Source: Flavobacteriales bacterium
Lineage (GTDB): Bacteria > Bacteroidota > Bacteroidia > Flavobacteriales_F > PHOS-HE28
NCBI GenBank assembly: GCA_016705545.1
Contig: JADIYA010000007.1
Location: 163,728-227,727, forward strand
Length of the DNA stretch: 64,000 nucleotides
Reading direction: 5' to 3'
In this document: positions 14,246 to 50,956 of the stretch, piece after piece
Layout: every line of letters starts with the position of its first letter
How positions within the stretch are numbered: the stretch's first letter is position 1
The notes under the pieces: generated by a model
The model's input: only the letters and a program-made list of their open reading frames with translations
Database searches by the model: none
Told to the model about the DNA's origin: nothing
Position numbers and translations under genes: made by a program

Positions 14246-14251
14246 TCACCC

Positions 14252-14674
14252 ATGCAGCGCCTGATCCGCTCCTTCAACACCTTGACCGATGCGCTCAAGG
14301 AGACCTTGCAGGAACAATATCCTGACGGGATCGACACCTCGCACATCAAGACCATCCCCACCGCCAAAGGCGAGATGCTGCGGGTGATCGAGCTCAGTAC
14401 GCCTGAAGCCTTGTACCTGATCAAGATCAATGCGGAGAGCCGCGCGGAGATCGAGGAATTCCTGGATCAGGACAACGAGCCCGCCGCTGCCGGTGATGAT
14501 GACCTCGATGCAGAGGATGGAATCGAAGGCGAGGCGGATGACGAAGGTGATGGCATCGACGACGCCGATGACGCGGATGACGACGATGATACCAATGACG
14601 GCGACGGCGACGACGATGATGAGGACGATGACGGGGACGCCGGTGATGATGATAAGGACGATGACGAGGACTGA
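14252..14674 (+). CDS. Hypothetical protein with a 65-residue poly-Asp/Glu C-terminal tail, 6 bp downstream of the deoxyhypusine synthase gene.
   Basis: An N-terminal domain of about 75 aa: MQRLIRSFNTLTDALKETLQEQYPDGIDTSHIKTIPTAKGEMLRVIELSTPEALYLIKINAESRAEIEEFL. It is followed by DDDLDAEDGIEGEADDEGDGIDDADDADDDDDTNDGDGDDDDEDDDGDAGDDDKDDDED. I could not recognise the family. Confidence 0.55.
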   Translation: MQRLIRSFNTLTDALKETLQEQYPDGIDTSHIKTIPTAKGEMLRVIELSTPEALYLIKINAESRAEIEEFLDQDNEPAAAGDDDLDAEDGIEGEADDEGDGIDDADDADDDDDTNDGDGDDDDEDDDGDAGDDDKDDDED

Positions 14675-14699
14675 TTCCCGCTGAACCATGCTCCCGACG

Positions 14700-14736
14700 C
14701 AGGCCCCGGATAACCCTGGGGCCTGTTTACTTTCGG
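14700..14736 (+). terminator. Candidate rho-independent terminator after the acidic-tail gene.
   Basis: An 8-bp stem caggcccc / ggggcctg with a 10-nt loop, followed by tttactttc. It starts 26 bp after the stop at 14674. Confidence 0.45.
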
Positions 14737-14751
14737 GGCAACACCCGCAAC

Positions 14752-15168
14752 ATGAACGGCACCTTTCACATCGCCATTGCCACCACGGACCTTAAGCGCA
14801 TGAAGGCCTTCTACGGGAGATTCCTCGGCCTCAAGGAAGGTCGGAGCGCCAAGACCTGGGTCGATTTCGACTTCTTCGGCCACCAGCTCACCATCCAGGA
14901 AGTGCCCGTGACTTACCGGACCGCGCGCATCTACAACCCGGAATCGAATGTTCCCAGCGACCATTGGGGCATCGTGCTTTCCATGAGCGACTGGAAAAAA
15001 CTGCGCGACAAGCTCAAGAAGGTCGGCCATCCCTTCTTCATTGAGCCGCGCATGGTGATGAAGGGCGAAGTGGGTGAGCAGCGCAGCATGTTCATCGAGG
15101 ACCCCGATGGTCACGCGATCGAGTTCAAGGCTTTCGAGGATGCGTATGATCTGTTCCGTAAAGCATGA
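14752..15168 (+). CDS. VOC family protein (glyoxalase/bleomycin-resistance/dioxygenase fold).
   Basis: A 138-aa protein. MNGTFHIAIATTDLKRMKAFYGRFLGL...DPDGHAIEF is the typical VOC metal-binding His/Glu arrangement. Confidence 0.75.
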   Translation: MNGTFHIAIATTDLKRMKAFYGRFLGLKEGRSAKTWVDFDFFGHQLTIQEVPVTYRTARIYNPESNVPSDHWGIVLSMSDWKKLRDKLKKVGHPFFIEPRMVMKGEVGEQRSMFIEDPDGHAIEFKAFEDAYDLFRKA

Positions 15169-36150: not shown

Positions 36151-38163
36151 ATGCGTCGAAGCCCGCTCCGTGATGCCCTCGAAGCCATGGCCGCCAGCGA
36201 TGGCAGCGATGTGCAGCCGCTCGCCATGCTGGTGCAAGCCGTGCGGCCATCGCGCTCCGAAAGCAAGCGGGGTGAAGCGCCGCGATTCATGGCTCTTCTG
36301 CAGTTGATCGAGCACCACGACGATCTGCGCGAGGGCCTTTCGCGCTATGTGCACCGATACTTCAGCGGCAAGGCCATCAGCCGCACTCTCACCGATGCCG
36401 GCATGCCGAGCGGGACCTTCTGGCAAGAACTGCAGCAGCGCCTCACCTACAAGGTGCTGCCGTATCAGCCTGCGCCCGAAACGCTCGACCACGCCCTGAT
36501 CAACGCCTTTTTCCAGGAAGGGGATGCGGACTGGGTGAGCGCCCTGCCCGACGGCGACGTGGTGCGGCTGCTGGCCCTTCTCGGTGTCGATGGCATTGAT
36601 GCGCGCGAGCGCCACGGGCTGTTGATGCAGGAGCTCTTCTTCGCAGCCAAGGTGCTGGCGTTGCGCATCGCCGGGCGCGCCTTCGACGGCGAGGTGCTGC
36701 GCATGGTACCCGAGCATGCCAACTTCAACAGTCCCTTCGTACGCCTCGAGGATGCGCTGGACCGCTACCTCGACCAGCTGCGGCTGGGCGAAGCATCGCG
36801 CCGACCGGATGACCCAGAGCGCATGCCTGTGCTGGTCCTGCTCGACGATTGCCATGCGGCCATCGCCGATGCGTACCGCAATAGCGAGGCGCTGGGCATC
36901 ACGTTCCGTGTGAATCAGCACCTGGTCCTGATGGAGCGCATGCTTCGGCGCCTGCGCGGCGTGCTCGATGCCATTGCGCCGCCAGCGGAAATCGATGGTC
37001 GTACGGCATTGGCGCGCATGCTGAAGGAAGTGGTGCGCATCAGCAGTGGCCGCACGCGCGTCGGCGCTTTCATCCAGGAGAGCACCCAAGTGGTGGCGAG
37101 GGAGATCACGCAGCACACGGGCCGCAAGGGGGAGCATTACATCACCACCAGCCGCAGCGAGTACCTGTCCATGCTGCGCAGCGCGCTGGGAGGCGGCGCT
37201 ATTGTAGCCGTGGCGTGCATGCTGAAGGCCTGGTACGGCAGCATCGAGGGCAGCCTCTTCTTCCACGCCTTCTTGTACAGCATGAACTACGCGATGGCCT
37301 TCATCGCCATCTACCTCCTGCACCTCACCTTGGCCACCAAGCAGCCCGCCATGACCGCCGCCACCATTGCGCAAGCGCTCGACGAGGGCCGCCACGATGG
37401 GAGCATGCATTACGATTCGCTCAGTGAATTGGTGGCGCGCGTGTGGCGCAGCCAGTTCATCGCCTTCGTGGGAAATGTGGCCATGGCCTTCCCAGTGTCG
37501 TTGGCGCTCGCCTACGGGTGGAATGCGCTCTTCGGCCCGGAACTGCTCGCGCACAAATCGGAGAAGATGCTGCACGAGCTCGACCCCTTCCGGTCGCTGG
37601 CCATCCCGCACGCCGCCATCGCCGGGATCTTCCTCTTCATCAGCGGTCTCATCGCGGGCAGCATCACCAATGCGAGCATCCACCGCAATGTGCCGTTGCG
37701 CATCCAGGAGCATCCGGCGCTGAAGGTGGTGATGAGCGAGCGCTGGAGGCGGCGGATCGCCCGTGCGTACGAACAGCACGCAGGCGGCGTGATCAGCAAT
37801 TTCTGGTTCGGTGTCTTCATGGGGTCGGTCGGCGCGGTGGGTGCTTTCCTGGGCCTCGCGCTCGATATCCGCCACATCACCTTCGCCGCTGGCAACCTGG
37901 GCCTGGGGCTGGTAGGCATCGATTGGACCACGACGCTGTACACAGTGATCGCCTCTGTGCTCGGCATCGGCCTCATCGGGCTGTTCAACTTCATCGTCAG
38001 CTTCGCACTGTCGCTCATCCTGGCCATGCGCTCGCGCGGCATCGCCTTCCAGGACCTGCTGCCCATGCTCGTGGCCGTGCGGCACCGCTTCGCCCGGGAG
38101 CCTCGGTCGTTCTTCTTCCCTCCACTGGACCGATCTGCACCCGCTGCCGACCCAGAAACGTAA
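36151..38163 (+). CDS. Large hypothetical membrane protein. It may belong to the poorly characterised family annotated as site-specific recombinase (PF10136-like); function unknown.
   Basis: A 670-aa protein. A soluble N-terminal domain of about 330 aa is followed by a C-terminal half with at least six predicted TM helices (AIVAVACMLKAWYG, AMAFIAIYLLHLTLA, IAGIFLFISGLIAG, FWFGVFMGSVGAVGAFLGLAL, LGLGLVGIDWTTTLYTVIASVLGIGLIGLF). Family assignment is from memory and is not verified. Confidence 0.45.
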   Translation: MRRSPLRDALEAMAASDGSDVQPLAMLVQAVRPSRSESKRGEAPRFMALLQLIEHHDDLREGLSRYVHRYFSGKAISRTLTDAGMPSGTFWQELQQRLTYKVLPYQPAPETLDHALINAFFQEGDADWVSALPDGDVVRLLALLGVDGIDARERHGLLMQELFFAAKVLALRIAGRAFDGEVLRMVPEHANFNSPFVRLEDALDRYLDQLRLGEASRRPDDPERMPVLVLLDDCHAAIADAYRNSEALGITFRVNQHLVLMERMLRRLRGVLDAIAPPAEIDGRTALARMLKEVVRISSGRTRVGAFIQESTQVVAREITQHTGRKGEHYITTSRSEYLSMLRSALGGGAIVAVACMLKAWYGSIEGSLFFHAFLYSMNYAMAFIAIYLLHLTLATKQPAMTAATIAQALDEGRHDGSMHYDSLSELVARVWRSQFIAFVGNVAMAFPVSLALAYGWNALFGPELLAHKSEKMLHELDPFRSLAIPHAAIAGIFLFISGLIAGSITNASIHRNVPLRIQEHPALKVVMSERWRRRIARAYEQHAGGVISNFWFGVFMGSVGAVGAFLGLALDIRHITFAAGNLGLGLVGIDWTTTLYTVIASVLGIGLIGLFNFIVSFALSLILAMRSRGIAFQDLLPMLVAVRHRFAREPRSFFFPPLDRSAPAADPET

Positions 38164-38201
38164 GGAAACGCGACCTAGCGCGACCATCGCTGCAAATCCA
38201 C

Positions 38202-39257
38202 ATGCACATGCGCACCCCGCTTCTCTTGGCCGCGTCGTTCATCGCCTTCGGCTGCTTTGCCCAAGTGAGCACCGACCCACAGCCACGTAACGTGCTCTTG
38301 GAAGAATTCACCGCCATCAATTGCGGCAACTGCCCTGCTGGCCACGTATCTGCTGCGACCATTCTGAATGCCAATCCCGGCCGTGTGGTGTTAGTGAATG
38401 TGCACGCCGGATCACTCGCGAACCCATCCGGATCGCAGCCCGACTTCCGCACGCCCTGGGGCAACCAGTTGCACAGCACCTATGGCGTCACCTTCACGCC
38501 GCAAGGACTGGTGAGCCGCACGGCTTACAATGGCCCTACCCTGCTCTCCTCGGTGAATTGGAACGCGGCGGCAAACGTGCTCCTCGCTCAGACCGCCATT
38601 GTGAATCTGAGCATCACTACAGACTTTGATCCCGCAACGCGCTTGCTGCAAGTCTCCGTGGAGCACTATTACACCTCAACCAGCCCAGGTGCGGCCGACC
38701 GCCTGCATGTACTGCTCACCGAAGACCATTTGACCGCATACCAAGCGAATTACGGCGCAGGTGGCGCACAACCCAGCTACGACCACCGGCACGCCTTGCG
38801 CGTGGGACTGACACCTTTTGCTGGTGATGCGCTCGGAACAGGCGCATCCGGCGAGCAAGGGATGAATACCTACTCGCATGTCCTGCCCATCGGCTGGAAT
38901 GCGGACAACGTGCGCGTGGTGGCCTTCATCAACGAGGCTGCTGGAACCCTACCGGGCGAGGTGCATCAGGCAGCAGAGGCGCCGGCCATCGCCATTGCGA
39001 CGGGGGTAGTTGAAATGCCGCAACCAGCTGCATTGAATGCCTTCCCGAATCCGGCGCACGGCGCTTTCGTCCTGCAAGCGCTGGATGGGTCAATTGGCGC
39101 CATTACGGTTCGTGATGCGTCCGGCCGCATGGTGGGAGCGATTCAGCCTGCATCCAAGGCCAATGCCCTGATGCTGGATGCCTCGGCTTGGTCAGCTGGC
39201 ATTTACATCATTGCCACGGACGATGGACGCGTTGCGCGCTTGGTGGTCCAGCATTGA
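38202..39257 (+). CDS. Omp28-related outer-membrane protein with a T9SS type A C-terminal domain.
   Basis: Signal peptide MHMRTPLLLAASFIAFGCFAQ. The thioredoxin-like CxxC motif (NCGNCPAGH) is typical of Omp28-family proteins. C-terminal LNAFPNPAHGAFVLQ...YIIATDDGRVARLVVQH is a T9SS tail. Confidence 0.6.
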   Translation: MHMRTPLLLAASFIAFGCFAQVSTDPQPRNVLLEEFTAINCGNCPAGHVSAATILNANPGRVVLVNVHAGSLANPSGSQPDFRTPWGNQLHSTYGVTFTPQGLVSRTAYNGPTLLSSVNWNAAANVLLAQTAIVNLSITTDFDPATRLLQVSVEHYYTSTSPGAADRLHVLLTEDHLTAYQANYGAGGAQPSYDHRHALRVGLTPFAGDALGTGASGEQGMNTYSHVLPIGWNADNVRVVAFINEAAGTLPGEVHQAAEAPAIAIATGVVEMPQPAALNAFPNPAHGAFVLQALDGSIGAITVRDASGRMVGAIQPASKANALMLDASAWSAGIYIIATDDGRVARLVVQH

Positions 39258-39503
39258 TCAACCATCGATCCGCTTGAACACGGACCGCTGGAGCGCCTCC
39301 GTATCCAGCGGTTGCCCGATGTCCCGGCGCTGCTGCATCCACCGATCGATCATCACGCTCTGACGCTGGTAGGTACTGCAAGCCGTGCAGATGCGCAGGT
39401 GAAGCCAAAGGCCGATACGCTCTACGAGGCTCAAAGGCTTGAACACGCGACGCTCGATGAGCACGGTGGCCTTGCGGCAGGAGACGCTGCGTAGCTGGCT
39501 CAT
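39258..39503 (-). CDS. Anti-sigma factor (zf-HC2 zinc-finger type).
   Basis: An 81-aa protein with HLRICTACSTYQRQ, an H-x3-C-x2-C motif. It overlaps the upstream ECF sigma gene by 4 bp (ATGA). Confidence 0.6.
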   Translation of the reverse strand: MSQLRSVSCRKATVLIERRVFKPLSLVERIGLWLHLRICTACSTYQRQSVMIDRWMQQRRDIGQPLDTEALQRSVFKRIDG

Positions 39504-40096
39504 TCGCGGATCGGTTTGAGGCGCTGCTCGATGCAGGCGCGCAGCTTGAGCTTGGCGCGGTGCACTTGCTGCCAGTAATTGGCTTCACTCAGGCCAAGCG
39601 CTTCCTGAATGCGCGCGCCCTCCATGTCCTGCAGGTACTTCATCTCCACGGCGGCTCGCCAACGTTCAGGCAATGCATCCAAGCAATGGCGAAGCGCGCG
39701 ATCAAGCTTCTCGGACTGATCGTCCTGACGGAAGATCATGATGTCATGTGGTGCCTGTTCATTGTTCCAATGCCCCTCCTGATTGAAGAACTGTTCAGCA
39801 GGGTCGTCGGGATCGGACTCGCGGCCTGACAAACGGGCGGCATCGCGGTAGCTCTTGCGGTAGTGGTCGAGCAGCTTGTGCTTGAGGATGGCGAAAAGCC
39901 ATGTGCGCGGCGAACTCTCGCCCTGGAACCGATCAAGGGTCTCCCATGCGCTCACCAAGGCCACTTGCACGAGTTCCTCCGCATCATCGGGGTCCTTCAC
40001 GCGGTTCCGGGAGAAACGGAGCAGGTCGGCGGTGTGCGCCTTCACCCATTCCTCGAAGGTCCTTCTCCGGGCAGTCTCGTCCATCACCGTTGGCAC
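39500..40096 (-). CDS. RNA polymerase sigma-70 factor, ECF subfamily.
   Basis: A 198-aa protein. Region 2: LVQVALVSAWETLDRFQGESSPRTWLFAILKHKLLDHYR. Region 4: LDALPERWRAAVEMKYLQDMEGARIQEALGLSEANYWQQVHRAKLKLRACI. Confidence 0.9.
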   Translation of the reverse strand: MPTVMDETARRRTFEEWVKAHTADLLRFSRNRVKDPDDAEELVQVALVSAWETLDRFQGESSPRTWLFAILKHKLLDHYRKSYRDAARLSGRESDPDDPAEQFFNQEGHWNNEQAPHDIMIFRQDDQSEKLDRALRHCLDALPERWRAAVEMKYLQDMEGARIQEALGLSEANYWQQVHRAKLKLRACIEQRLKPIRE

Positions 40097-40114
40097 GGGG
40101 CCAAGGTAGCGGAG

Positions 40115-41722
40115 CTATTGCACGATGAAGCGCTGCGAGAGGGCACCGCCTTGAGTGGTGAATCGCGCCAGATAGGCACCCGGCGCCAAGCTGGAGACCA
40201 TGCTGCTGCTGCCTGGGGAAAGGCGCTGCTCACGCACGATGCGTCCAGCGCCATCGAGAACCACGAGCTGTCCGCTAGCGGTTGCCCGAACGCTGATCGG
40301 CCCAGTTGCAGGATTCGGGAAAACGGTGAATGATTCCGCTGGCTGCGCCACTTCGCCGGTGCCCACTGCGAACATGAGCGCATTGAACGCATTGATCCGC
40401 CCATGGCCGTGATAGTTGTCGAAGCCGGGCGTGTCCTCCAACGGATCACCCACCTGATCCTCTGCAGTGGCCTCGATGATGGCACGGATCTGCGCGGGCG
40501 TGCGCGTTGGTTGTTGGGCCTTCAGTAGCGCAGCCAAAGCGCTAACGTGCGGCGTGGCCTGCGAAGTGCCAGACCAATAGGTGGTAAAGGAGACGTTGCT
40601 CGTGTGACTGAGCCCGTAGATGTAATCGCCGGGCGCGCACACGCTGATGTGGCTGCCGTAGTTGCTGCCGCTGGAAGCGCTCCAATAGAATGGCACGGCG
40701 CGACGGTCATTCGGCTTGGTGCCGCCCACGGCCATGACGCCGTTGAGTGAGGCAGGGATGAACGGAACGCTGCTGTTGGTGTTCATCATGCAGGCCACCA
40801 CGAGCACACCATTGGCCAGTGCGTAATCGACGGCCGCCTGCATTTCCGGTGAAGGATCCGTTCCGCCCATGCTCATGCTGATGACGTCGGCCCCTTTGTC
40901 GACGGCGTAGTACATGCCCGCAACCCACCAGCTGTAGTAGCCTTGGTTCGAGCTGTTCAGCGCCTTGATCACCATCGCCTTGCAATTGAGGTCAACGCCC
41001 GTGAAGCCGATTCCATTGTCACCAGCAGCCGCCACGATGCTTGTGACGTTGGTTCCGTGGCCCTGATCGTCGGTGGGGTCGTTGTCGTTGTTGGCGAAGT
41101 CCCAGCCCTGCACGTCGTCAATGAATCCGTTGCTGTCGTCATCGATCCCGTTGCCCGCGATCTCCCCGCCGTTCTGCCAGATGCGATCGCCCCAGTCCGG
41201 GTGCTGCAAGCGCACGCCGCTGTCGATGATAGCCACGGTCACCTCTTCGCTGCCCTGCTCGATCTCCCATGCGGCCGTCATGTCGATGTCGGCGCCTGCT
41301 AAAGCCGGCGAGAGCGCGAAGGTGCCATCGTTGTGCAGCCCCCATTGCTTGGCGTAATGAGGATCGTTCGGCGTGAAGTCGCGATCGCCGCCGCCATGAC
41401 CCAAGTGATCCCGCTCGGCACGCAGAACGCCAGGAAGCAGGCGGTACGCCGCAAGTGCTTGATCGATCTCCGTGCCTTCGGGCAACTCAACGACGAAGAG
41501 GCTGGGCATGCCGGGCTTCGCAGGTGTGAGGCGATTGGCGCGCAATGCACCGAGCGATGCGCTCAGCCGATCCACCGGCACCGATCCGATGTTGGCCTTT
41601 GCCGCGATGGGCACAGCCTTCAGTTGCGCATCGGACGTGAGGCGGATCATGATGCGATTGTTCTGATGCGCTTGGAGCGAGGCGGACAACACGAGGAATG
41701 CGAACGTGGCGAGTAGTCTCAT
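40115..41722 (-). CDS. S8 family serine peptidase (subtilase) with a T9SS type A C-terminal domain.
   Basis: Signal peptide MRLLATFAFLVLSASLQA. Catalytic triad contexts: Asp VAIIDSGV, His DDQGHGTNVTSIVAA, Ser GTSQATPHVSALAALL. C-terminus SFTVFPNPATGPISVRA...ARFTTQGGALSQRFIVQ. Confidence 0.9.
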   Translation of the reverse strand: MRLLATFAFLVLSASLQAHQNNRIMIRLTSDAQLKAVPIAAKANIGSVPVDRLSASLGALRANRLTPAKPGMPSLFVVELPEGTEIDQALAAYRLLPGVLRAERDHLGHGGGDRDFTPNDPHYAKQWGLHNDGTFALSPALAGADIDMTAAWEIEQGSEEVTVAIIDSGVRLQHPDWGDRIWQNGGEIAGNGIDDDSNGFIDDVQGWDFANNDNDPTDDQGHGTNVTSIVAAAGDNGIGFTGVDLNCKAMVIKALNSSNQGYYSWWVAGMYYAVDKGADVISMSMGGTDPSPEMQAAVDYALANGVLVVACMMNTNSSVPFIPASLNGVMAVGGTKPNDRRAVPFYWSASSGSNYGSHISVCAPGDYIYGLSHTSNVSFTTYWSGTSQATPHVSALAALLKAQQPTRTPAQIRAIIEATAEDQVGDPLEDTPGFDNYHGHGRINAFNALMFAVGTGEVAQPAESFTVFPNPATGPISVRATASGQLVVLDGAGRIVREQRLSPGSSSMVSSLAPGAYLARFTTQGGALSQRFIVQ

Positions 41723-41794: not shown

Positions 41795-43405
41795 TCATCC
41801 GTGCTCGGTGAGCTGCTCCTGCAAGGTCGGTCCTGCATGCCCTGGTTTGCGCGGAACAAGGCTCATGGCATATTCCGCCAGCGCCGTGATGGTCAGGCTC
41901 GGGTTCACGCCCAGGTTCGCGGGGATGATCGAGCCATCCAGGATCCGTAGTTCGGGATAGCCGAAGGCCTCGAAACGGTCATTCACCACACCCTCAACGG
42001 CATCGGCACCCATGGGACAACCACCGAGGATGTGCGCCGTGCTGCTCATGTCGAGCAGTACTTCGGGCAATGCGTTCATGGCCGTGCCGCCGGTCTTCGC
42101 CGCGTATCGGTGCATCACCTCCTGTCCCACGCCGATGAAAGCGGGAATGCGCTTGCCACCATCGCGCGCAACGCTCAGCCTGCCGCCGAAGAGTCCGCGC
42201 TTCCACCGCACGCGCACGGCATTGTCCAGGCTCTGCATCACCAATAAGATGATGCTGTGCCTGCCAAAATCGCGGCGGAGCACTTGGAACGCCTTGCGCG
42301 GCTGCGCAATCGTGTTCCAAAGCGATTTCGCCACGCGCAGCAATGGCGGACCTTCACCTGCTGCCATCACCGCGAGCAGGCCCATGGCACCGGAGCCGTC
42401 GCCGTACTTCACCAGTTCGATGTGCGTGTGCGCATCGGGCTCGAACACGCGACTGATGGCCACGCCGTGGTTGACCTTATCCGGGATGCCGCTGATGCCG
42501 CAGAGCGATTCGCTATTGGTGCGCACCGTGGTACCGAGCCGATCGGACAGCTTGGGCAAGGTGCGCAGATCGTGTTTCTGCCGAAGGAGCAGCTTCAATG
42601 TGCCCATCACGCCCGCGCTCACCACAAGACCTTTTGATCGGAACACGCGCTCCTTGCGTCTGAAAAAGGCCGTTGTGCTGCGCACATGCACATGGTACGA
42701 TCCGTCCCTGTGCTCGATACGCGTGACCTCGGTCTCGGCCTCGATGCGCGCGCCGAATCGCTCCGCGAACCAGAGGTAGTTCTTGTCGAGCGTGTTCTTG
42801 GCGTTGAAACGGCAGCCCACCATGCAGTTGGCGCAGGCCGTGCATCCGGTGCGTTCTGGTCCAAGGCCGTTGAAGTACGGGTCGGTCGGGGTCTTCGCAT
42901 CGCCGAGGTACACGCCCACATGATCCACGGGCTTGTAGGTATCGGTCTTGCCCATGTCGCGCGCGATCTCCGCCAGCACACGGTCCTCAGGACCTTCCTG
43001 CGCGTAACGCGTACTGCCCAGCATGAAGCGGGCGGTGGCGTAGTGCGGAGCCAGGCGCTGCTTCCAATCGCCAAGGCGCGACCACGCGGGATGGCTGAAG
43101 AAGGCATCGCTGGGCATCATGTGCGTGTTGGCGTAGATGAGGCTTCCACCGCCCACACCCGCACCACTGAGCACCATGATCCGATTGAGCAACTCGATCT
43201 GCTGCGGACCGAAGCAGCGCAGCAGCGGTGCCCACAGGAACTTGCGGACGTTCCAATTGGTGCGCGGGAAATCCTTCGCCTCCCAGCGCTTGCCCTTCTC
43301 CAGCACGAGCACGCTGTAGCCCTTCTCCGCCAGCCGCATCGCGCTAACACTGCCACCGAAGCCTGAGCCGATGACGATGTGATCGAGGATGTCGTTGGTG
43401 GGCAT
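41795..43405 (-). CDS. GMC family oxidoreductase (cholesterol-oxidase-like flavoprotein).
   Basis: N-terminal FAD-binding motif DHIVIGSGFGGSVSAMRLAEKGYSVLVLEKG. C-terminal GMC motif ILGGCPMG...VVNDRFEAFGYPELRILDGSIIPANLGVNPSLTI. Confidence 0.9.
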   Translation of the reverse strand: MPTNDILDHIVIGSGFGGSVSAMRLAEKGYSVLVLEKGKRWEAKDFPRTNWNVRKFLWAPLLRCFGPQQIELLNRIMVLSGAGVGGGSLIYANTHMMPSDAFFSHPAWSRLGDWKQRLAPHYATARFMLGSTRYAQEGPEDRVLAEIARDMGKTDTYKPVDHVGVYLGDAKTPTDPYFNGLGPERTGCTACANCMVGCRFNAKNTLDKNYLWFAERFGARIEAETEVTRIEHRDGSYHVHVRSTTAFFRRKERVFRSKGLVVSAGVMGTLKLLLRQKHDLRTLPKLSDRLGTTVRTNSESLCGISGIPDKVNHGVAISRVFEPDAHTHIELVKYGDGSGAMGLLAVMAAGEGPPLLRVAKSLWNTIAQPRKAFQVLRRDFGRHSIILLVMQSLDNAVRVRWKRGLFGGRLSVARDGGKRIPAFIGVGQEVMHRYAAKTGGTAMNALPEVLLDMSSTAHILGGCPMGADAVEGVVNDRFEAFGYPELRILDGSIIPANLGVNPSLTITALAEYAMSLVPRKPGHAGPTLQEQLTEHG

Positions 43406-43440
43406 GCACCAAAGCTACCGGTAGGCCAGAAAGCCTAGCG

Positions 43441-43476
43441 CTCTAGAACTGGAAGTAAATGAAGGGCACCATCTCC
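43441..43476 (+). repeat. Upstream copy of a perfect 36-bp direct repeat (ctctagaactggaagtaaatgaagggcaccatctcc) that flanks the PKD/T9SS gene.
   Basis: Identical to 45040..45075. On the minus strand it encodes ...EEMVPFIYFQF-stop, a duplicate of the MBOAT C-terminus. Confidence 0.9.
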
Positions 43477-43619
43477 TCATTCTGGTTCGGACAGACCTAT
43501 GAACACCGCCGCTCCGTCGGGCCAATCAATCTACGGATAGTGCATATTACAGTATTACATTGCATGTGGCTTATTTAGATGGCATCACGAGCTGCACCTC
43601 AGCGAATCAACCTGAAGCG

Positions 43620-45038
43620 ATGAAAACGCGCACCATTCTCACCTTGCTCAGCGCTTTTGCTGGCCTGCTTGTCCGAGGCCAATGCAGCGCCGACTTCAGC
43701 CACGTTTCGAATTGGGACACCCTTGCGTTCACCAATCTCTCCTCGGTATCGAACGCGCGCTACTATTGGAACTTCGGCGATGGCTCCACGTCGTATGAGG
43801 CGGACCCAGAGCATGTCTTCATTGAGGCGGGTACCTTCCAAGTCACGTTGCATGCACTAGATACCCTAAGCCTCTGTCATAGCTATCACCAAACATGGAT
43901 CTCCGTTTCCCGGCCACCAGATTCGAGCTGCGAGCCGTACATGACCGATTCACAGTTCACGTACAACAACACGGACTATGTCGAGATCTTCGACCAGGCC
44001 ACCGGGTGCACTGGCATGATGCGACACATTGATTGCATGGGCGCGCAGAACTTCTCGCCAGGAAATTGGTTCAACCTAAGTAGCTGGAACAATGCGCTCA
44101 CCATGGCGCGTTTGCGATACACCAGCAACGACTCTATCAATGGACTCGTGTTCCGCCGGGCCTATTACCGCACCATTCCGTACAATCAAACACCCGCTAC
44201 CAGCTACGACACCTGCTCAGCCGACTTCGAGTATCTGATAGACTATCAGCCGAATGGCGCAGTGGTCACCTTCAAGCCGCTGGGATCCCCCAACGCCGAT
44301 ACCGTATGGGTAACGGGCTTCGGCAATCCGATTCCGCTGGTTGGCCAGACTTCAACCTTCACCTTCCCCTATACCGGGGGAAATCTGGGTAAATGGCAGA
44401 ACGTGTGGCGTCGGAACTATGATCCGGCTTACGGATGCCAGAGCCGGCAAGCGCACACCTTGATTATTAGGAACCCTTACTACATAGCCCCACCAACCTG
44501 CCATATCGGCGATCAGCCGCAGGATTTAATGGTCCAGCAGAATGGATCGGCACAGTTCATCATAACTACTGACGCTGGCTCGATCAAGCAATGGCAGCAA
44601 AACGCCGGTCTTGGATGGCAGAACCTCTTCAACGCAGGTCCTTATTCCGGAGTGAACACTGATACGCTCACGGTGGCCAATTGCCAGAATTGGTGGAGCA
44701 ACTACCTCTACCGCTGCGTGGTAACAGCACCTGGCAGCAGTTGCCATAACACAAGCACGGTGGCTGTGCTGAGCGTGACCGTAGGCCTGGAGGAACTGGA
44801 GCAAACTGGAATATCCGCCTTCCCGAATCCGGTGCAAGACAATTTATTCCTGCGATTCTCCGATGCCGGTGGTTCCGCGCGTATCACGATCATCGACACG
44901 CTCGGCAAGGAAGTCCGCAATTCAACTCAAACGGGGAGCACGGCGACAATCGACTTGAGCGACCTCAGCCAAGGGTTGTATATCATCGCGGCGAGGACCG
45001 GCAATCGGCTGTTCCAAGGCCGCATCGTGAAACAATGA
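43620..45038 (+). CDS. PKD-domain protein with a T9SS type A C-terminal sorting domain.
   Basis: Signal peptide MKTRTILTLLSAFAGLLVRGQ. PKD-like region ARYYWNFGDGSTSYEADPEHVFIEAGTFQVTL. C-terminus ISAFPNPVQDNLFLRF...GLYIIAARTGNRLFQGRIVKQ. Its upstream region (43480..43619) is AT-rich compared with the rest of the window. Confidence 0.7.
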   Translation: MKTRTILTLLSAFAGLLVRGQCSADFSHVSNWDTLAFTNLSSVSNARYYWNFGDGSTSYEADPEHVFIEAGTFQVTLHALDTLSLCHSYHQTWISVSRPPDSSCEPYMTDSQFTYNNTDYVEIFDQATGCTGMMRHIDCMGAQNFSPGNWFNLSSWNNALTMARLRYTSNDSINGLVFRRAYYRTIPYNQTPATSYDTCSADFEYLIDYQPNGAVVTFKPLGSPNADTVWVTGFGNPIPLVGQTSTFTFPYTGGNLGKWQNVWRRNYDPAYGCQSRQAHTLIIRNPYYIAPPTCHIGDQPQDLMVQQNGSAQFIITTDAGSIKQWQQNAGLGWQNLFNAGPYSGVNTDTLTVANCQNWWSNYLYRCVVTAPGSSCHNTSTVAVLSVTVGLEELEQTGISAFPNPVQDNLFLRFSDAGGSARITIIDTLGKEVRNSTQTGSTATIDLSDLSQGLYIIAARTGNRLFQGRIVKQ

Positions 45039-45039
45039 C

Positions 45040-45075
45040 CTCTAGAACTGGAAGTAAATGAAGGGCACCATCTCC
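45040..45075 (+). repeat. Downstream copy of the 36-bp direct repeat, overlapping the stop codon and last 11 codons of the MBOAT gene.
   Basis: Exact match to 43441..43476. Confidence 0.9.
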
Positions 45076-46709
45076 GCTGTCACAGTCTGGTAGATGAGCG
45101 CCACCGTGGCGGCGCAGGCCAGTGCCATGGCCCAGAGCGGAAGCGATGCGAAGCCCTCGCGGTAGCGCTGCTTGATGGATTCCGGCAGCCAATGCACCAC
45201 GAGGCCGATGAGCATCAGCATGAACACACTCTTGAATGCGACGAGCACATCGAGCATGTGCCTTGTACCGAAATCACCGGTGAGTTGATGCAGGAAGGCG
45301 TCGGCGGTCTCCAGATCGGGGCTTCTGAACCAGATGCGTGTGAAGGAGATGAAGGCGAAGGTGAGCGCCACCTTCCAGGCATGCGCGAGCCAGTGCGGGC
45401 TCTTCTCCCAGGGACTGATCCGCTTCCACTGCTTGTACACCAGCAGGCCGATCCCGTTGAGGCCGCCCCAGATCACGAACATCCAACTGGCACCATGCCA
45501 CAGACCGCCGATGAGCATGGTGATCATCAGGTTGCTGTTGGTGGTGATCGCTATCTGCAAGCCGGGCCAGAAGCGCGTGAGCACAGCGAACAGCGCAACC
45601 GCACTGAGGTAGACCACCGGCAACCACCACCACCCGGTGAGCAGCACGAGCGCCGCGCCGATCACGCTGAGCATGATCCACGAGAAGAGCGACCCCCCGC
45701 GATTGCCACCCATGGGGATGTAGAGGTAATCGCGCAGCCAGGTGCTGAGGCTCATGTGCCAGCGCTTCCAGAATTCGGCCACGTTGCGCGCCTTGTACGG
45801 GCTGTTGAAATTCATGGTGAGCCGGAAGCCCATGAGCAGCGCGACGCCGATGGCGATGTCGGTGTAGCCGCTGAAGTCGGCGTAGACCTGCAACGAGTAG
45901 CCGCCGAGCGCCATCAGGTTCTCGAAGCCGGTGAATCGGAGGGGATCGGCGAAGACGCGATCGATGAAGTTCACGGCGATGTAGTCGCCCACCACCATCT
46001 TCTTCACGAGGCCATTGAGGATCCAGAAGACAGCGATCCCGAACTCGGCGCGTGCGAGCGCGAAGGGCTTGGTGATCTGCGGGATGAACTCGCTGGCGCG
46101 CACGATGGGGCCAGCCACCAGTTGCGGGAAGAAACTCACGTAGAAGCCGAAATCGAACAGGTTGCGAACGGGCTTAAGGTCGCCCCGGTACACATCGATC
46201 GCGTAGCTCATGCACTGGAAGGTGTAGAAGCTGACGCCCACGGGCAGGAGCACTTTGTTCTCCACGAAATGCGCATCCCACGCGAGGTTGGCCCAGCGCG
46301 CGAAGAAGTTCACCGGCTGGAACGCAGTGCCTGCGATGGCATTGATGTTCTCGACCACGAAGTGCGCGTACTTGAAAAAGAGCAGCACGCTCAGGTTGAG
46401 GGTGATGCTGACCGCGAGCAGCACGCGCTTGCGCAGGCGATCGTCCGTAGCACCGCTGGCACGGCCGATCACGAAATCCATGACGATGCTGAAGAGCAAC
46501 AGGCCCACGAAGAGCCCGCTGGTCTTGTAGTAGAAGAAGAGGCTCACGGCGAATAGCCAGCCGCTGCGAACCAGCGGACGCCGGTGCACCAGCGAATACC
46601 CGGCGAGCACCACGGCGAAGAAGCCCCAGAAGAAGAACCGCGTGAAGATCACCGGCGACTGCGCGTCGTACGCCAGGATCGAGGTCCAGTCGAAGGCGAG
46701 CGTGGTCAT
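45042..46709 (-). CDS. MBOAT family membrane-bound O-acyltransferase (AlgI/DltB/PatA-like).
   Basis: A 555-aa polytopic protein. The MBOAT core FWKRWHMSLSTWLRDYLYIPMGGNRGG has the conserved His. Upstream is FSGYTDIAIGVALLMGF. Confidence 0.9.
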   Translation of the reverse strand: MTTLAFDWTSILAYDAQSPVIFTRFFFWGFFAVVLAGYSLVHRRPLVRSGWLFAVSLFFYYKTSGLFVGLLLFSIVMDFVIGRASGATDDRLRKRVLLAVSITLNLSVLLFFKYAHFVVENINAIAGTAFQPVNFFARWANLAWDAHFVENKVLLPVGVSFYTFQCMSYAIDVYRGDLKPVRNLFDFGFYVSFFPQLVAGPIVRASEFIPQITKPFALARAEFGIAVFWILNGLVKKMVVGDYIAVNFIDRVFADPLRFTGFENLMALGGYSLQVYADFSGYTDIAIGVALLMGFRLTMNFNSPYKARNVAEFWKRWHMSLSTWLRDYLYIPMGGNRGGSLFSWIMLSVIGAALVLLTGWWWLPVVYLSAVALFAVLTRFWPGLQIAITTNSNLMITMLIGGLWHGASWMFVIWGGLNGIGLLVYKQWKRISPWEKSPHWLAHAWKVALTFAFISFTRIWFRSPDLETADAFLHQLTGDFGTRHMLDVLVAFKSVFMLMLIGLVVHWLPESIKQRYREGFASLPLWAMALACAATVALIYQTVTAEMVPFIYFQF

Positions 46710-46767: not shown

Positions 46768-48033
46768 TCATGGGGCCGTGCGCTTGAGGTGCTCCCCGTA
46801 CTTCTCGATCATCGCACCGAACAGCAGGTCGCCCAGCAGTTCGTAGCCCGCGCGGTTCAGGTGAACACGGTCGGCTTTGGCCATGCCCGCCTTCTCCCAG
46901 CGCCTGATGCTGGCCTCTCCGCCCATCACGCCCCAGCTGTCCCAGACACCCACGCCTTCATTGGCGCTGAGGCGCAGCATGGCATCGCGCACCGCACCCG
47001 CGTTCTTGTTCACGAAGCGCCGCTTCATGTAGCTGTCCGTGTTGGTGGTGAGCAGGATCGCGGCACCCGGTTCCGCGACGCGGATGCGGCGGATCAGCTC
47101 CCGGTAGTTGGCCTCATACCGCGCCGCGTTGAAGTCGGGATCATGCGCGTCGTTGATGCCGATGGAGAGGATGACGAGGTCCGGTCCCAGGAGCAAGCTC
47201 CTCGCTGAAGCGCTGGCAGCGCAGCCAACTCGTGGTGCTCGCGCCATTCACGCCGAGGGCATGCAGCACCACACCGGGGTCGTCGCCGTCGAGCACGATG
47301 CCGCGCAAGGTGAATTGCCGCTGCATGGAATCGGTACGCGCGATGCGCAGCTGCAGCGTGTCCACGTACCGGTCGTAAGTGAACTCGGTGAACCCGCCGG
47401 CTTCATCCACGCGACGAGCGATGCGCAGCGTGCTGTCCCGATCCCACGCGGTGACGGCGTAGCTGCTGTCCGGGCGATGCAGCACCCGCACGCGCCGGAA
47501 AGGATATCCCGCATGGATGTCTGTTCGGAAGCTCACCTTCAGCTCAGCGAGCGTGTCACGCGTGGTGGCGCTGATTCCGCGATGCCGAGGATGCTGCTGT
47601 CGGCGCGCGTGACATTGCGCACGGCAGTCCACTTGCCGGTGTACTCCGGCCGGTACCACCATGGCGTGTTGCTCTTCGCCATGGCATAAGGGAAGACGAA
47701 GCCGCGTCCTGCGCGCATACCGGGCGACAATGTCTGCAAGCGGTGCCGCAACTGCATGCTCCATTGATCGGCCTGCACATGCGAACCGCCGATATGAGCA
47801 ATGCTCATTCTCCCTTCACCCTCGAAGACCAGCTTGTCCAATTTGGCGTGAAAACGTGCCCACGCCGCGCTATCGCCTTTGAAGATGATCCGGTTCGCAG
47901 CGGCGTTCACGAAGGGAAGCTCCTTCACGCGCACCGGATTGCCCTGCGAATGGGCCGATGATGCCAGCAACATCGCCAGCAGTGCGATGAGGAGGCGGCT
48001 ATTGCTGCGCGGCATGATGATCGGCGTAGGCAT
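46768..48033 (-). CDS. SGNH/GDSL hydrolase family protein (DltD/PatB-like), with the frame broken in two places.
   Basis: Three consecutive minus-strand ORFs encode parts of one protein: 47539..48033 (signal peptide ...MSIAHIGGSHVQADQW..., the SGNH block I Ser region), 47141..47764, and 46768..47247 (...LVILSIGINDAHDP...DRVHLNRAGYELLGD, blocks III and V). Confidence 0.55.
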
Positions 48034-49475
48034 CGATCAGAGCGGTGTAGAAGAGCTCGCCCACTTTGCGCGCGCCCAACGGGCTGAAATGCGTGTAGTC
48101 CTCGGCAGCGAGCGGCGGATCGGCCTGCACCCAGCTCACCATGCTGTTGCGGCCGCCCATGGCGTCGTACATGTCCCAGAACACCGCGCCTTGCGCGAGC
48201 GTGTTGGCCTTCATCGCGTCGCGCACGTCCTCGAGGTAGGGCCGCGTCACATAGTCTTCGCCTTCTTTGATGCTCATGTCGCTGGGGCCGATGACGACCA
48301 CCGGAACACCGGGCGCCAGCTTGCGGAAGCGGCCGATCTGCGCGCCGAAGAAGCGGCCATACTGCTCCGCTTCCTCCTTGCTCTTCAGGCTGGGGCACGT
48401 TGCCGCCGTATTGGAGGATCAACCAGGAAGGACCGAGCTGTGCGTACATCGACGCTAATAGCCCCTTGGTCCTGCCGCTTGAATTCTAGCCCGCGGCGCC
48501 GCGTGCCGCGATGTTGTCCACAGCCACTCCATTGCGGCCATCGAGGGCGATACCGAAGACGTCGGGACTGTCTGTCCCTCGGAAGCGAAGGGTCAACTCC
48601 TTCGGCGGCGATTCGAGTCGCCATTCGCGCAGCAGCAGTTCGTTCGCGGGGGCGATGGTCTCACTCGTAAGCTCCACCCCATCGGCTTCCACCGTGATGG
48701 TCACAGGTGCGCGGTGCCAACCGAACCAGAGCTTGCACCGGCTCCACGCCTGCGCTTTCGCGTAGCACTTGCGGTCGGGCTTCAAGGTCACGAATGCCTC
48801 ATGCACGATGGTGTCCGGCACGATGGTGTCGTTGAGGATAGGTGAGAATCGGGAGAATGCGGAGAGTGCGCCGAACCGATCGTGGCGCTGCTCTTTGGGC
48901 TTCTTGCCCATCACGCTGTACCGATTCCAATCGCCGCCGAGTACGCGCTCCACGCTGAAGTGCGGCACAATGTCCGCCACGGCAATGAGGCCCGGGCCGT
49001 TGCCTCCGAATTGCACTTGCAGTTTGTTCCGCACGTATGCCGTGATCCGATCGCCCTCGATCTGCGAATCACCGTAGTGCAGGATGCGGACCGGCTTCGC
49101 CTGCGCCGCAGCCGACTCCAGATCAGCGAAGAATGGCTGAAGCACCGACGCACCTTGCGCGGGGAAATGCAGCTTGATGCGCTCCTCCAATGGCGCTAGA
49201 GTGCTCGGGTCGAAGGCTGGCACCGATGCGGCCGAATCAGCGGGCACTTCCACGGTGATCGTGTCCAATGCCGCCTCTGTTGAATCCGTGGCCACCGCCA
49301 GGATATCACTGATGTCCACGCGCACCTGTTCCTCGGGAAAGAGAACGTCGCGCCAGCGCGGCATGCGTAACGTGAGCCCGCCGATGGATAGACCGTCCTG
49401 TGGGATCAGCTGCCCGATGAGCGTTAGCAAAGCCAGCACCGCGAGCAGGAAAACGAGCACGCGTGCCGGACTCAT
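47999..49475 (-). CDS. Second SGNH hydrolase family protein (paralogue, DltD/Ape-like), with an in-frame TAG at about 48486 and an additional frame break.
   Basis: ORF 48486..49475 has the N-terminus MSPARVLVFLLAVLALLTLIGQL...RILHYGDSQIEGDRITAYVR (GDS block). It continues past the TAG as ...GLLASMYAQLGPSWLILQYGGN. ORF 47999..48301 (...VVVIGPSDMSIKEGEDYVTRPYLEDVRDAMK...DYTHFSPLGARKVGELFYTALIDAY) is the C-terminal block. There is an ATGA overlap with the mltD-like gene stop. Confidence 0.5.
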
Positions 49476-50956
49476 CGCTTGGTGGGGACTTTGATGCGCT
49501 GGCCAGGCCGGATGCCAGGGCCGATGCCGTTCACCCGCATGAGGCTGTCGGCATCGACGCCGGGATAACGCTTCGCGATGCCGTAGAGCGAATCGCCCTT
49601 CCGCACCGTGTACCACGTGAAGCGTTCTCCCGTTGAATGCGAAAGCGCATCACCGGCCTTCAGCGGCACCTGCGCCGTCGAGCCATCGGGTTTCGGCGAA
49701 GCATCGTTCACCGGTTCATCGGCATCGTCGTTCTTCTCCTGCTGCTTCTCGAAGCGCGCGCGCTGCGCAGGCGTCACCCAGATAACCAGTTCCTCGCCCA
49801 CATCGATGTGATCGCTGCGCATGCGGTTCCAAGTCTTGATCTGCGACACCTTCACGTTGAAGCGCTGCGCGATACGGCCGAGGAAATCGCCGCTGCGCAC
49901 GCGGTAGTAGATAGCCTCACGGCCGCTCGGCCCTTGTGCCACGGCATCGGTGCCGGGCTCGCTAGCGGTGCGTGCGCGTTCAATCAGCGCTAGCTGCACA
50001 TGCGCAATGGAATCGGACAACGCCGTATAGCGGACGCCCTCGCCCTTGGGCACCAGCAGCGCATGGTAGGCGGGCACCTGCGCGCCGCAGAGCGTGGGAT
50101 TGAGTGCACGTAATCGGGGCACCGGCAGGCCCAAGGCCACCGCCAGCGCATCGAAGCGCACGGGCTGCGGGGATCGCAGGGTGTCTGCGGGCTCCATCGG
50201 TGTCACCATCATGGGCGCAATGCCGAGTTGGTCCTGGTGCAATGCGAGGTAGCTCATCGCCATCCATAAGGGCAGCGCATCGCGCACGCCTTCGGTCACA
50301 TGCGGATAGAGCTCGCGCAGCTCCGGAGTCGCGCGTGTGCGTCCGATCGCGCGCTGCACGTTTGCCGGTCCGCAGGCGAAGGCCATGATCGTTCGGCTCC
50401 AGTCGCTGTAGTGCTGGAAGAGGTCCTTGAGGTAGCGTGCCGCGGCCATCGTGCACAGGCGTGGATCGCGGCGCTCGTCCACTTCACCGTTCACTCGCAG
50501 GCCGTAGCGCAGTGCCACTGGATAGGTGAGCATCCAGAGGCCAGCGCCGCCTTCCGGACCCTCGGCCAACGTGTTCATGCACGAGAGCGCGAGCGGTAGG
50601 CGCTTCAGCTCCTTCGGCAAGCCGTGCTGCACCAATTCGCCCTCGATGAGTGCATCGTACGCACGGGCAAGTCCGAGAGCAGCCCGCAGGTCGTCGCGGC
50701 GCGCCTCACCGAGCACGTCCACGTAGCGCGCTACGAGGCTGTCAGCGAAGACGGGCAAGCCGGGCTGTCCGGTGCGCAGCTTGGCGTACAGGTCGCGCAT
50801 GTCCATGGCGCGTACCACGCCCGGCCCGTGCTGGCGACGGTCGGCTTCCTGTGCCGCTTGCACGGGCCACGTGGCGGCGAGGCTATCGAGCCGCCACAGT
50901 GGCTGCGCTGCTGCGCACGCAGTGGTGAGAACGGAGAGGAACGCGAAGGCGCGCAT
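49472..50956 (-). CDS. Membrane-bound lytic murein transglycosylase D-like protein (SLT domain plus two LysM domains).
   Basis: Signal peptide MRAFAFLSVLTTACAAAQ. SLT catalytic region LPLALSCMNTLAEGPEGGAGLWMLTYPVALRYGL...TIMAFACGPANVQRAI. Two LysM repeats: YYRVRSGDFLGRIAQRFNVKVSQIKTWN and WYTVRKGDSLYGIAKRY. Confidence 0.85.
   Translation of the reverse strand: MRAFAFLSVLTTACAAAQPLWRLDSLAATWPVQAAQEADRRQHGPGVVRAMDMRDLYAKLRTGQPGLPVFADSLVARYVDVLGEARRDDLRAALGLARAYDALIEGELVQHGLPKELKRLPLALSCMNTLAEGPEGGAGLWMLTYPVALRYGLRVNGEVDERRDPRLCTMAAARYLKDLFQHYSDWSRTIMAFACGPANVQRAIGRTRATPELRELYPHVTEGVRDALPLWMAMSYLALHQDQLGIAPMMVTPMEPADTLRSPQPVRFDALAVALGLPVPRLRALNPTLCGAQVPAYHALLVPKGEGVRYTALSDSIAHVQLALIERARTASEPGTDAVAQGPSGREAIYYRVRSGDFLGRIAQRFNVKVSQIKTWNRMRSDHIDVGEELVIWVTPAQRARFEKQQEKNDDADEPVNDASPKPDGSTAQVPLKAGDALSHSTGERFTWYTVRKGDSLYGIAKRYPGVDADSLMRVNGIGPGIRPGQRIKVPTKR

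Follow-up and report, generated by a model that had tools for sequence, protein, structure and literature searches.

A 64-kb stretch of DNA from a Flavobacteriales bacterium (assembly GCA_016705545.1, contig JADIYA010000007.1, positions 163,728 to 227,727), referred to below as the window, contains a gene insertion at the 3' end of the gene encoding an MBOAT-family (AlgI/DltB-like) O-acyltransferase. The inserted segment carries a single gene, termed the cargo gene, which encodes a protein with a PKD domain and a C-terminal sorting domain of the type IX secretion system (T9SS). The insert is bracketed by two identical 36-bp direct repeats. One copy forms the present 3' end of the MBOAT gene, and the other, termed the orphan copy, lies on the far side of the insert, next to the gene of a GMC-family oxidoreductase. 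The features of the locus are listed in Table 1. Owing to the repeat, any 1,599-bp register within positions 43441-45075 is an equivalent description of the insert. The locus was compared with about 90 MBOAT loci and with eight genomic contexts of cargo orthologues, and copies were searched for in the fetched Bacteroidota loci (about 2.4 Mb, with flanks of 10 kb per side). These loci are given numbers (L001 and so on) where they have to be told apart.

Table 1. Features at the MBOAT 3' end (positions in the 64-kb window)
Feature	Position	Strand	Basis or remark
Inserted segment of 1,563 bp (leader of 143 nt, a single gene, 1 nt)	43477..45039	+	Absent from L090, L005, L007 and L008
AT-rich leader, 143 nt, presumed promoter	43477..43619	+	Sequence unique to the species among fetched loci
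Cargo gene, 472 aa, PKD and Por_Secre_tail	43620..45038	+	Pfam
Orphan repeat copy	43441..43476	-	Exact match; contiguous with 35-nt spacer homologous to the MBOAT-GMC spacer of L090
Functional repeat copy	45040..45075	-	Present MBOAT 3' end
Target gene, MBOAT (AlgI/DltB-like) O-acyltransferase	45042..46709	-	Pfam PF03062
Ancestral MBOAT-GMC spacer, 35 nt	43406..43440	-	29/35 nt identical to the L090 spacer
Promoter-like box TAGCTTTG	43410-43417	-	Fits the Bacteroidota -7 box (TAnnTTTG) and lies 4 nt before the ATG of the GMC gene
GMC-family oxidoreductase gene	41795..43405	-	Pfam GMC_oxred_N and GMC_oxred_C; adjoins MBOAT in L090, L005, L007 and L008

The 36-mer CTCTAGAACTGGAAGTAAATGAAGGGCACCATCTCC occurs exactly twice in the window, at 43441-43476 and 45040-45075, with no mismatch between the copies, as had been described in the first-pass annotation of this DNA. 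No third copy was found in the window with up to 3 mismatches allowed, and none of 100 dinucleotide-preserving shuffles gave a match. The sequence has no other copy in the fetched loci and was also not found in IMG/VR viral contigs or in JGI metagenome contigs, and a genome-wide repeat, which would have spoken against a discrete insertion, is not indicated. The downstream copy comprises the 10 final sense codons of the MBOAT gene (EMVPFIYFQF), its stop codon and 2 further nt, and its earlier assignment to the 3' end of that gene was correct. The upstream copy was rightly said to be attached to nothing, since in-frame stop codons lie just upstream of it and it is part of no gene. The identity of the two copies ends abruptly at 36 bp at both edges. 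Local alignment of the 150 adjoining nt yielded a score of 11, compared with a null of 9.0 ± 1.5 (p = 0.15), and no extended degenerate homology past the 36 bp, which would be the mark of an element-borne gene end, was found.

The site without the insert was identified in a sister species (L090, JGI contig Ga0620610_0002020), in which the MBOAT protein is 93% identical and the locus about 89% identical at the nucleotide level. This contig shares the gene order Rho-DUF4293-arginase-SLT/LysM-GDSL-GDSL-MBOAT-GMC-S8. Its empty site is composed of the MBOAT stop (TAG AG), a 35-nt spacer homologous to 43406-43440 of the window, and the GMC start codon. In BLAST comparisons, positions 56665-45040 of the window correspond to 13-11670 of L090 and positions 43476-40251 to 11635-14857, and the 36 bp at 11635-11670 of L090 are aligned by both repeat copies of the window. 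The structure is therefore a true insertion, located 34 nt inside the MBOAT reading frame, with 36 bp of the target present on both sides. The reading frames of MBOAT and of the cargo gene are both intact. The orphan copy is the one retained at the ancestral position, beside the spacer and the GMC gene. A GMC gene directly after MBOAT was also found in L005 and L007 (23-nt gap) and in L008 (137-nt gap). L090 supports the proposed insertion of a one-gene cassette at the 3' end of MBOAT with duplication of 36 bp, and the empty site that was to be sought in relatives is present in all four of these loci.

A conspecific assembly (GCA_963851565.1, contig CAWKQS010000010.1, L001) is about 99% identical to the window over 21 kb and has the same structure. 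The two assemblies do not differ in the repeats and differ at 3 positions in the insert, all of which are synonymous third codon positions. The structure is real and older than the strain divergence of about 1%. Compared with L090, the window differs at 6 of the 35 positions of the spacer and at 3 of the 36 positions of the repeat, the latter all synonymous. Its own two repeat copies differ at 0 of 36. If the orphan copy drifts freely, these counts place the insertion, as a rough bound, later than most of the time since the species split; the Poisson bound, at the 95% level, puts its age below about three quarters of this span. Alternatively, the copies could have been kept identical by gene conversion.

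As had been stated before, exactly one real gene (43620-45038) is located between the repeats. The cargo protein contains a hydrophobic N-terminal signal peptide, a PKD domain (residues 33-85), a beta-sandwich middle region, an I-set Ig-like domain and a T9SS sorting domain (401-463), and no catalytic domain was detected in it. With its N-terminal signal peptide and C-terminal Por_Secre_tail, the protein qualifies as a T9SS type A cargo. A structure model built with 41 homologues is all-beta, with a mean predicted local distance difference test score (pLDDT) of 85.5. The cargo is a secreted multi-beta-sandwich protein, probably of the cell surface. The protein is identical to MBK6342653.1 and the adjoining MBOAT to MBK6342654.1, both from a Flavobacteriales metagenome-assembled genome (MAG), and a variant with 99% protein identity is encoded on two further contigs.

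Orthologues of the same length are encoded in related MAGs with 36-69% identity, and none of them lies beside MBOAT. The orthologue follows the methylmalonyl-CoA mutase gene in L082, L084, L086 and L085 (in L085 with one extra open reading frame, ORF) and a formate-dehydrogenase-like gene in L088 and L089; it lies beside an Omp28 gene in L083 and before DinB in L087. The 69% identity of the best homologue is in line with that of the fast-evolving adjoining S8 protease (77% to L090). A mobile cassette family bearing repeats wherever it occurs was rejected, as the orthologues occupy at least four other contexts without gene-end duplications. The repeats that flank the orthologues in L084 (5618-5810 and 7466-7707) and L083 (5501-5543 and 7563-7605) are multi-copy hairpins (GACCCCTTCAGGGTC type, and CCCCGCTCTCTCGAGCAGGGG) and not gene-end duplications, and none are present in L082, L086 and L088. 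These hairpin repeats look like repetitive extragenic palindromic (REP) or terminator elements and not like insertion scars.

The insert has a GC content of 0.54, compared with 0.60-0.66 in the flanks. The cargo gene itself has a GC content of 0.55 and a GC at third codon positions (GC3) of 0.68, and its neighbours have a GC3 of 0.73-0.88. The lower GC and GC3 that were to be checked against the flanks are thus confirmed, but as a sign of recent foreign origin they are weak. The orthologues show the same dip in their own genomes (0.55-0.56 where the host locus has 0.60-0.64, and 0.45 where it has 0.51, compared with 0.55 and 0.62 in the window), and GC and codon usage were for this reason set aside as proof of foreign origin. 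The low GC is a property of the cargo gene family and gives no evidence of recent import. The leader had been described as the window's most AT-rich stretch, which was only roughly right. Positions 43480-43619 have a GC content of 0.49, and the overlapping 140-nt window at 43442-43581 (0.457) is tied for third lowest; the lowest values belong to the 140-nt windows at 18437 (0.414) and 6459 (0.436), and the leader is not the minimum.

The leader matches only itself and L001 among the fetched loci, and it differs from the conserved motif found upstream of the cargo orthologues. It is presumed to carry the cargo promoter, although no sigma-70-type site was found in it. From there the cargo gene would be transcribed toward MBOAT. 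The stop codons of the two genes are 3 bases apart, which leaves no space for a terminator between their ends, and the cargo transcript is expected to continue, as antisense RNA, into the 3' end of MBOAT.

The C-terminal FIYF motif of MBOAT is invariant in all MBOAT loci compared, and the ending PFIYFQF followed by the stop codon, or a close variant of it, is retained. The MBOAT of the window would keep this conserved C-terminus only because of the duplication. MBOAT and the GMC gene are now parted by the insert. The GMC gene retains its native 71 nt of upstream sequence, including the promoter-like box TAGCTTTG. The TAnnTTTG box has five matches in the whole 64 kb, and the one in the spacer is conserved in L090, which suggests that the GMC gene has its own promoter in the spacer and a nearly leaderless mRNA. 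Because this upstream sequence was kept, the GMC gene is probably still expressed.

No integrase, transposase or other mobility gene was found in the insert or called within 10 kb on either side. The earlier statement that no integrase or transposase is present holds for this region, with the qualification that a gene annotated as 'site-specific recombinase' (PF10136) lies 5.3 kb away, outside the insert. This gene (36187-38163, plus strand) encodes 658 aa with an end-to-end Pfam match (E = 8e-179), and the function is putative. It is a conserved syntenic neighbour in L090, L005, L008, L014 and L018 and is unlinked to the insert. The insert has no terminal inverted repeats, and no second copy of the insert or the leader was found in the window, in L001 or in the fetched loci. 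It also showed no match to plasmid or phage collections or to any Rfam family. Insertion sequences (IS), miniature inverted-repeat transposable elements and transposons differ from it in having a transposase or inverted repeats, in copy number (the insert is single-copy) and in their family-specific duplications of 2-14 bp, compared with 36 bp here. Integron cassettes differ as well: the repeat is MBOAT coding sequence, the cassette end has no inverted repeat, no structured element was found, and no IntI was called nearby. With integrative elements and cis-mobilizable elements (CIMEs) the insert shares identical repeats, one of which overlaps the target 3' end; of the defining features of CIMEs it shows only this one.

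A degenerate MBOAT-end pattern was not found in IMG/VR viral contigs, and none of the 120 metagenome contigs that bear it contains a second copy; the sole candidate, L200, proved to be an unrelated AT-rich repeat. At the junction, where illegitimate recombination predicts microhomology with the donor, the closest orthologues (69% aa identity at best) allow a possible overlap of no more than 2 nt at the stop codon. The identity profiles of MBOAT and GMC to L090 and L002 gave no clear signal of a recombination breakpoint.

When every MBOAT locus was scanned for a second copy of its own 3' end, one further case was identified in a Flavobacteriales MAG (L022, JAGODO010000130.1), whose MBOAT is 62% identical to that of the window. 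The repeat is 46 bp long (13 codons, the stop codon and 3 nt) and lies at 3096-3141 and 3760-3805, with 45/46 positions identical and a synonymous mismatch. The insert of 618 bp contains a small ORF and a gene for a PIN-domain protein (VapC-like), which form a VapBC-like pair co-directional with MBOAT. L024 represents the empty site of L022: its MBOAT is 86% identical to that of L022, 45 bp of its sequence can be aligned with either copy, and the next gene is again that of the nSTAND NTPase. The core of the L022 repeat, GTGCCSTTCATTTAYTTCCAGTTCT, is 92% identical to that of the window. L022 is an independent event at the same gene end. No end motifs beyond the repeat are common to the two cargos; a weak likeness of the cargo ends beside the orphan copies (GAACCAGAATGA and GAGCCAAATG) was considered too short to count. 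Further MBOAT-end cases were not found in the 120 metagenome contigs or in L211-213.

A general scan of all loci for two-copy direct repeats revealed two more cases at other genes. In L085 (272-955; Logan SRR30863580_314962), the 3' end of the methylmalonyl-CoA mutase gene is duplicated over about 65 bp around an ORF encoding a secreted protein of 173 aa, just upstream of the cargo orthologue. The tail and spacer into which the orphan copy runs are the ancestral ones of the mutase gene, seen likewise in L086 and L082. A diverged mutase-like tail (AAKAILKKLSAA, followed by a stop codon), which overlaps the start of the new ORF, follows the in-gene copy. This structure resembles what would be left by a homologous arm introduced from a donor with adjacent mutase and ORF, the recipient having retained its own gene end. 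In L035 (14216-15024; CAWFMB010000028.1), in the surroundings of a DUF819-family match, 38 perfect bp (62 bp at 92%) duplicate the 3' end of a gene for a 421-aa membrane protein. The insert consists of about 700 bp of low-complexity DNA made of degenerate short repeats of the GGGGATTGC type, and the orphan copy continues as a diverged gene fragment. Other direct-repeat candidates (L102, L171, L120, L006 and L038/L080) were rejected as tandem paralogues or small intergenic repeats.

The three clean cases (the window, L022 and L085) have the same arrangement in cargo orientation, namely repeat, leader (143, 69 and about 20 nt, respectively), ORF or ORFs, stop codon, 1, 8 or 12 nt, and repeat. 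The outer edge of the repeat lies 2 nt past the MBOAT stop codon in the window and 3 nt past it in L022, an agreement with a probability of about 0.01 under a uniform model, calculated post hoc. If such events fall on gene ends generally, the chance of a second hit at the MBOAT end is about 0.2, counted as one among about 4 other events in about 1,400 genes, in loci that had been chosen for MBOAT.

MBOAT is the last gene of a conserved arginase-SLT/LysM-GDSL-GDSL-MBOAT block, which shows synteny in L001, L090 and L211. In L090, MBOAT is followed by GMC-S8, and in L002 by a beta-lactamase-family gene (with DUF3471; L002:11938-13587) and then GMC-S8. An S8 gene and a sigma factor gene follow in L003. 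Extracytoplasmic function (ECF) sigma factor genes were found in seven loci (L003, L006, L009, L010, L012, L014 and L018), directly after MBOAT in all except L003. L211-213 contain AAA/VWA genes and a gene for an MmeI-like restriction-modification enzyme (L211:7739-13406), and L022 and L024 contain the nSTAND NTPase gene (nSTAND1, L022:3844-7923). Because the conserved block ends at MBOAT and the downstream genes, of accessory or defence type, differ between relatives, MBOAT marks the edge of a variable islet. A second indel in this islet is the 2.1-kb segment at 38126-40250 of the window, which contains an Omp28/T9SS gene and the genes of an anti-sigma factor and an ECF sigma factor and is missing from L090. 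No direct repeats were found around it.

The reading favoured here, with a probability of roughly 45%, is that the insertion is the product of host recombination or repair without element-encoded machinery, at the edge of the variable islet. The insertion itself is real and fairly recent. The ancestral order was MBOAT, a 35-nt spacer, GMC and S8. A 1,563-bp piece consisting of the leader and a complete gene entered this order 34 nt inside the MBOAT coding sequence, and the 36 bp that reach to 2 nt past the stop codon came to lie on both sides of it. One of the copies still terminates MBOAT, and the other stayed with the spacer and the GMC gene. For the mechanism, two routes may be considered. 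One-ended homologous recombination could have been anchored in MBOAT, with an illegitimate second join made 36 bp 'too early', or a DNA fragment could have been captured at a staggered break and followed by fill-in. Selection would keep only events that duplicate the gene end, as any other insertion here would truncate MBOAT.

Several observations are consistent with this reading. The slot after MBOAT varies and the repeats end where homology between islet variants would end, as expected of an islet boundary. The insert is probably not a self-mobile element, because its sole gene encodes a PKD/T9SS protein and because it has no recombinase, inverted repeats, extra copies in the fetched loci or likeness to plasmids or phages. 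A single enzyme with a fixed stagger or a fixed attachment (att) core is disfavoured by the differing lengths (36, 46, about 65 and 38-62 bp) and targets of the duplications. The diverged in-gene tail in L085 is what a donor-derived homologous arm with an illegitimate join predicts, and L035 is similar.

Other observations weigh against host recombination or repair. A donor in which the cargo gene abuts the MBOAT stop codon was not seen among the eight orthologue contexts and about 90 MBOAT loci. The copies are identical at all synonymous sites, at three of which the sister species already differs; such identity is easier to reconcile with a local duplication, or with a donor of the same species, than with a foreign arm. 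For homology-facilitated illegitimate recombination, the outcome mainly known is deletion of recipient DNA and not its duplication. The tight 3' boundary of the three clean cases (stop codon, 1, 8 or 12 nt, repeat) is not predicted by an unspecific process. The second hit on the same gene end in L022 hints at a site preference, with the chance probability of about 0.2 given above.

The repeats can alternatively be read as attachment sites of a remnant or of a CIME-like element mobilised in trans, for which the MBOAT 3' end would be attB, a copy of the gene end would be carried in attP, and the recombinase would have been lost or would act in trans. CIMEs have lost the integration and transfer genes and kept attL and attR (PMC5704250). 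Integration into gene ends is classically recognised by identical direct repeats, one of them being a conserved gene's 3' end, and repeats that stop 2 and 3 nt past the MBOAT stop codon hold all that an element needs to restore the gene. The same gene end was also struck independently in L022, where the core GTGCCSTTCATTTAYTTCCAGTTCT is so similar. However, there is no recombinase in the insert or within 10 kb of it, and decay must have removed everything else cleanly to leave only 1.56 kb flush with the cargo stop codon. No recombinase-bearing relative was seen at the putative MBOAT att site, which is a weak test because singletons and elements larger than 10 kb would escape it; likewise, Phage_integrase was not among the 25 most frequent Pfam families of the 130 ORFs downstream of MBOAT, where singletons would again escape. 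The pattern-bearing metagenome contigs without a second copy, the lack of the pattern in IMG/VR, the lack of common end motifs in the window and L022 cargos and the repeat lengths of 36 and 46 bp point the same way. Such an element is an unlikely but still serious candidate. A Campbell-type integration, by a single crossover in the short homology, of a 1.6-kb circle made of the cargo and one 36-bp copy would set a repeat on either side of the insert. Such a circle, perhaps excised from another strain by recombination between the same repeats, would account for the perfect identity of the copies, as expected within a species, and the structure is reversible by construction through the same repeats. 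Lengths of 36-46 bp are close to the minimum for efficient action of RecA or single-strand-annealing proteins. Integration of a circle explains the spread of the structure and not its origin, since the cargo and the 36 bp must first have been joined by an event of another kind. Neither a circle nor a second context has been seen and the two assemblies of the species that were compared include no empty-site allele, and this route is regarded as improbable.

A new recombinase-less cassette, moved in trans by a widely staggered cutter such as an IS1634/IS1549-like transposase or a Cas1/casposase-like integrase, would account for four small inserts with long duplications of gene 3' ends in about 2.4 Mb (the window, L022, L085 and L035) and for the polarity that the three clean cases share in cargo orientation. 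Transposases of the IS1634 family generate long and variable duplications (8-514 bp), for which no model of the mechanism has been put forward (PMC2266710). The inserts have no conserved cargo ends, inverted repeats or multi-copy family, the cargo orthologues reside in at least four other contexts without gene-end duplications, and no candidate enzyme was identified. The copies in L085 and L035 are diverged alleles, which fits homologous exchange better than fill-in. A cassette of this kind is very improbable, and the broader proposal of a Bacteroidota process that adds small recombinase-less modules (one surface-protein gene, a VapBC pair or a small secreted ORF) at conserved gene 3' ends, with 36-65 bp duplicated so that the target still functions, a set polarity in which the repeat begins 1-12 nt after the cargo stop codon, a preference for MBOAT and an enzyme that acts in trans and either cuts with a wide stagger or recognises gene ends, is also highly doubtful. 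An assembly or consensus artefact, for example a chimeric join at a shared k-mer, could be suspected because the window comes from a MAG and because, compared with the conspecific assembly, its neighbouring GDSL genes are broken by indels of 1-2 bp. It is almost certainly not the cause, because that independent assembly, about 1% apart, has exactly the same repeats and insert. The cargo gene is moreover intact with synonymous changes only, the orphan copy directly adjoins the spacer that L090 has conserved, and an analogous structure occurs in an unrelated MAG with its own empty-site relative.

Several known systems resemble the structure in part. CIMEs and decayed integrative elements (e.g., the ICESt1/ICESt3 family of streptococci) also have repeats that include the 3' end of a conserved gene, an intact gene, no internal integrase and accessory cargo. 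Unlike them, the insert is 1.56 kb long with one gene and no remnants of mobility genes, no integrase-bearing relative occupies the site in the loci scanned, its repeat is identical to the local allele at synonymous sites, and the repeat length differs between the two MBOAT cases. Homology-facilitated or double illegitimate recombination, described in Acinetobacter, Streptococcus and Pseudomonas when foreign DNA is taken up, likewise involves no element machinery, one conserved anchor beside non-homologous DNA and an arbitrary inner junction, and L085 has a donor-type tail beside the retained recipient tail. It usually deletes recipient DNA, whereas 36 bp are duplicated here, and natural transformation is undocumented for this lineage. 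Insertion sequences of the IS1634/IS1549 type produce long target duplications (8-514 bp) with lengths that vary between events, as do those of tens of bp described here, but they have a transposase gene, defined ends and many copies, all of which the insert lacks. Integration of phage 21 or e14 in icd replaces the 3' end of the gene with an element-borne copy. The displaced orphan 3' end is common to such phage or island integrations and the structures described here, and L085 and L035, with their diverged copies, come closest; in the window, however, the copies are identical, and genes of phages or islands are absent from the insert. Integron cassettes and Xer-dependent dif modules are also small, promoter-poor or single-gene units without their own recombinase, and toxin-antitoxin cargo such as that of L022 is typical of them. 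They differ in that the repeat here is target coding sequence, with no attC hairpin or XerC/XerD site, and no integron integrase is encoded nearby.

The structure is a direct-repeat-flanked single-gene indel at an islet boundary; it is well documented but in all probability an ordinary event. It provides a clean, comparatively dated case of the entry of an accessory gene without visible machinery or damage to the essential end of the target, with empty-site controls in a sister species. The main interest lies in the repeated occurrence, in Bacteroidota, of small recombinase-less modules flanked by long gene-end duplications. If the cases reflect one process, it would account for some of the turnover, gene by gene, at the boundaries of Bacteroidota islets, and an orphan gene-end copy would be a simple signature by which any genome could be searched for such events. 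If each case was an accident of its own, the insertion is an ordinary indel, useful mainly as a marker. Since the 36-bp repeats allow precise loss of the insert, its presence or absence may vary between activated-sludge strains.

Other features were recorded in the compared loci and elsewhere in the window. In L038 (3729-4064, Chitinophaga) and L080 (3745-4156, Bacteroidia), an element of about 45 nt (TTGAAAATCAACAAACGCACTATGAAATC...) is repeated two to three times downstream of an ORF of 207-222 aa, and each copy follows a hairpin. These elements may be tandem small RNAs. At 46768-49616 of the window, 1-2-bp indels relative to L001 (47196, 47577, 48395, 48462 and 48487) interrupt both GDSL-lipase genes. 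In L001 and L090 these genes are whole and encode 422 and 492 aa. The indels are probably consensus errors of the window assembly, and the genes are probably not pseudogenes. Large surface-protein coding regions of the window contain about 18 tandem units of 221 bp (22141-26366) and three units of 686 bp (6912-8758). Single-base indels, which would cause frameshifts, distinguish several of the 221-bp units. A 23-bp segment in the N-terminal region of the Rho gene (53336-53358) is missing from L001, and from 53600 onward there are more small indels and dense single-nucleotide polymorphisms.

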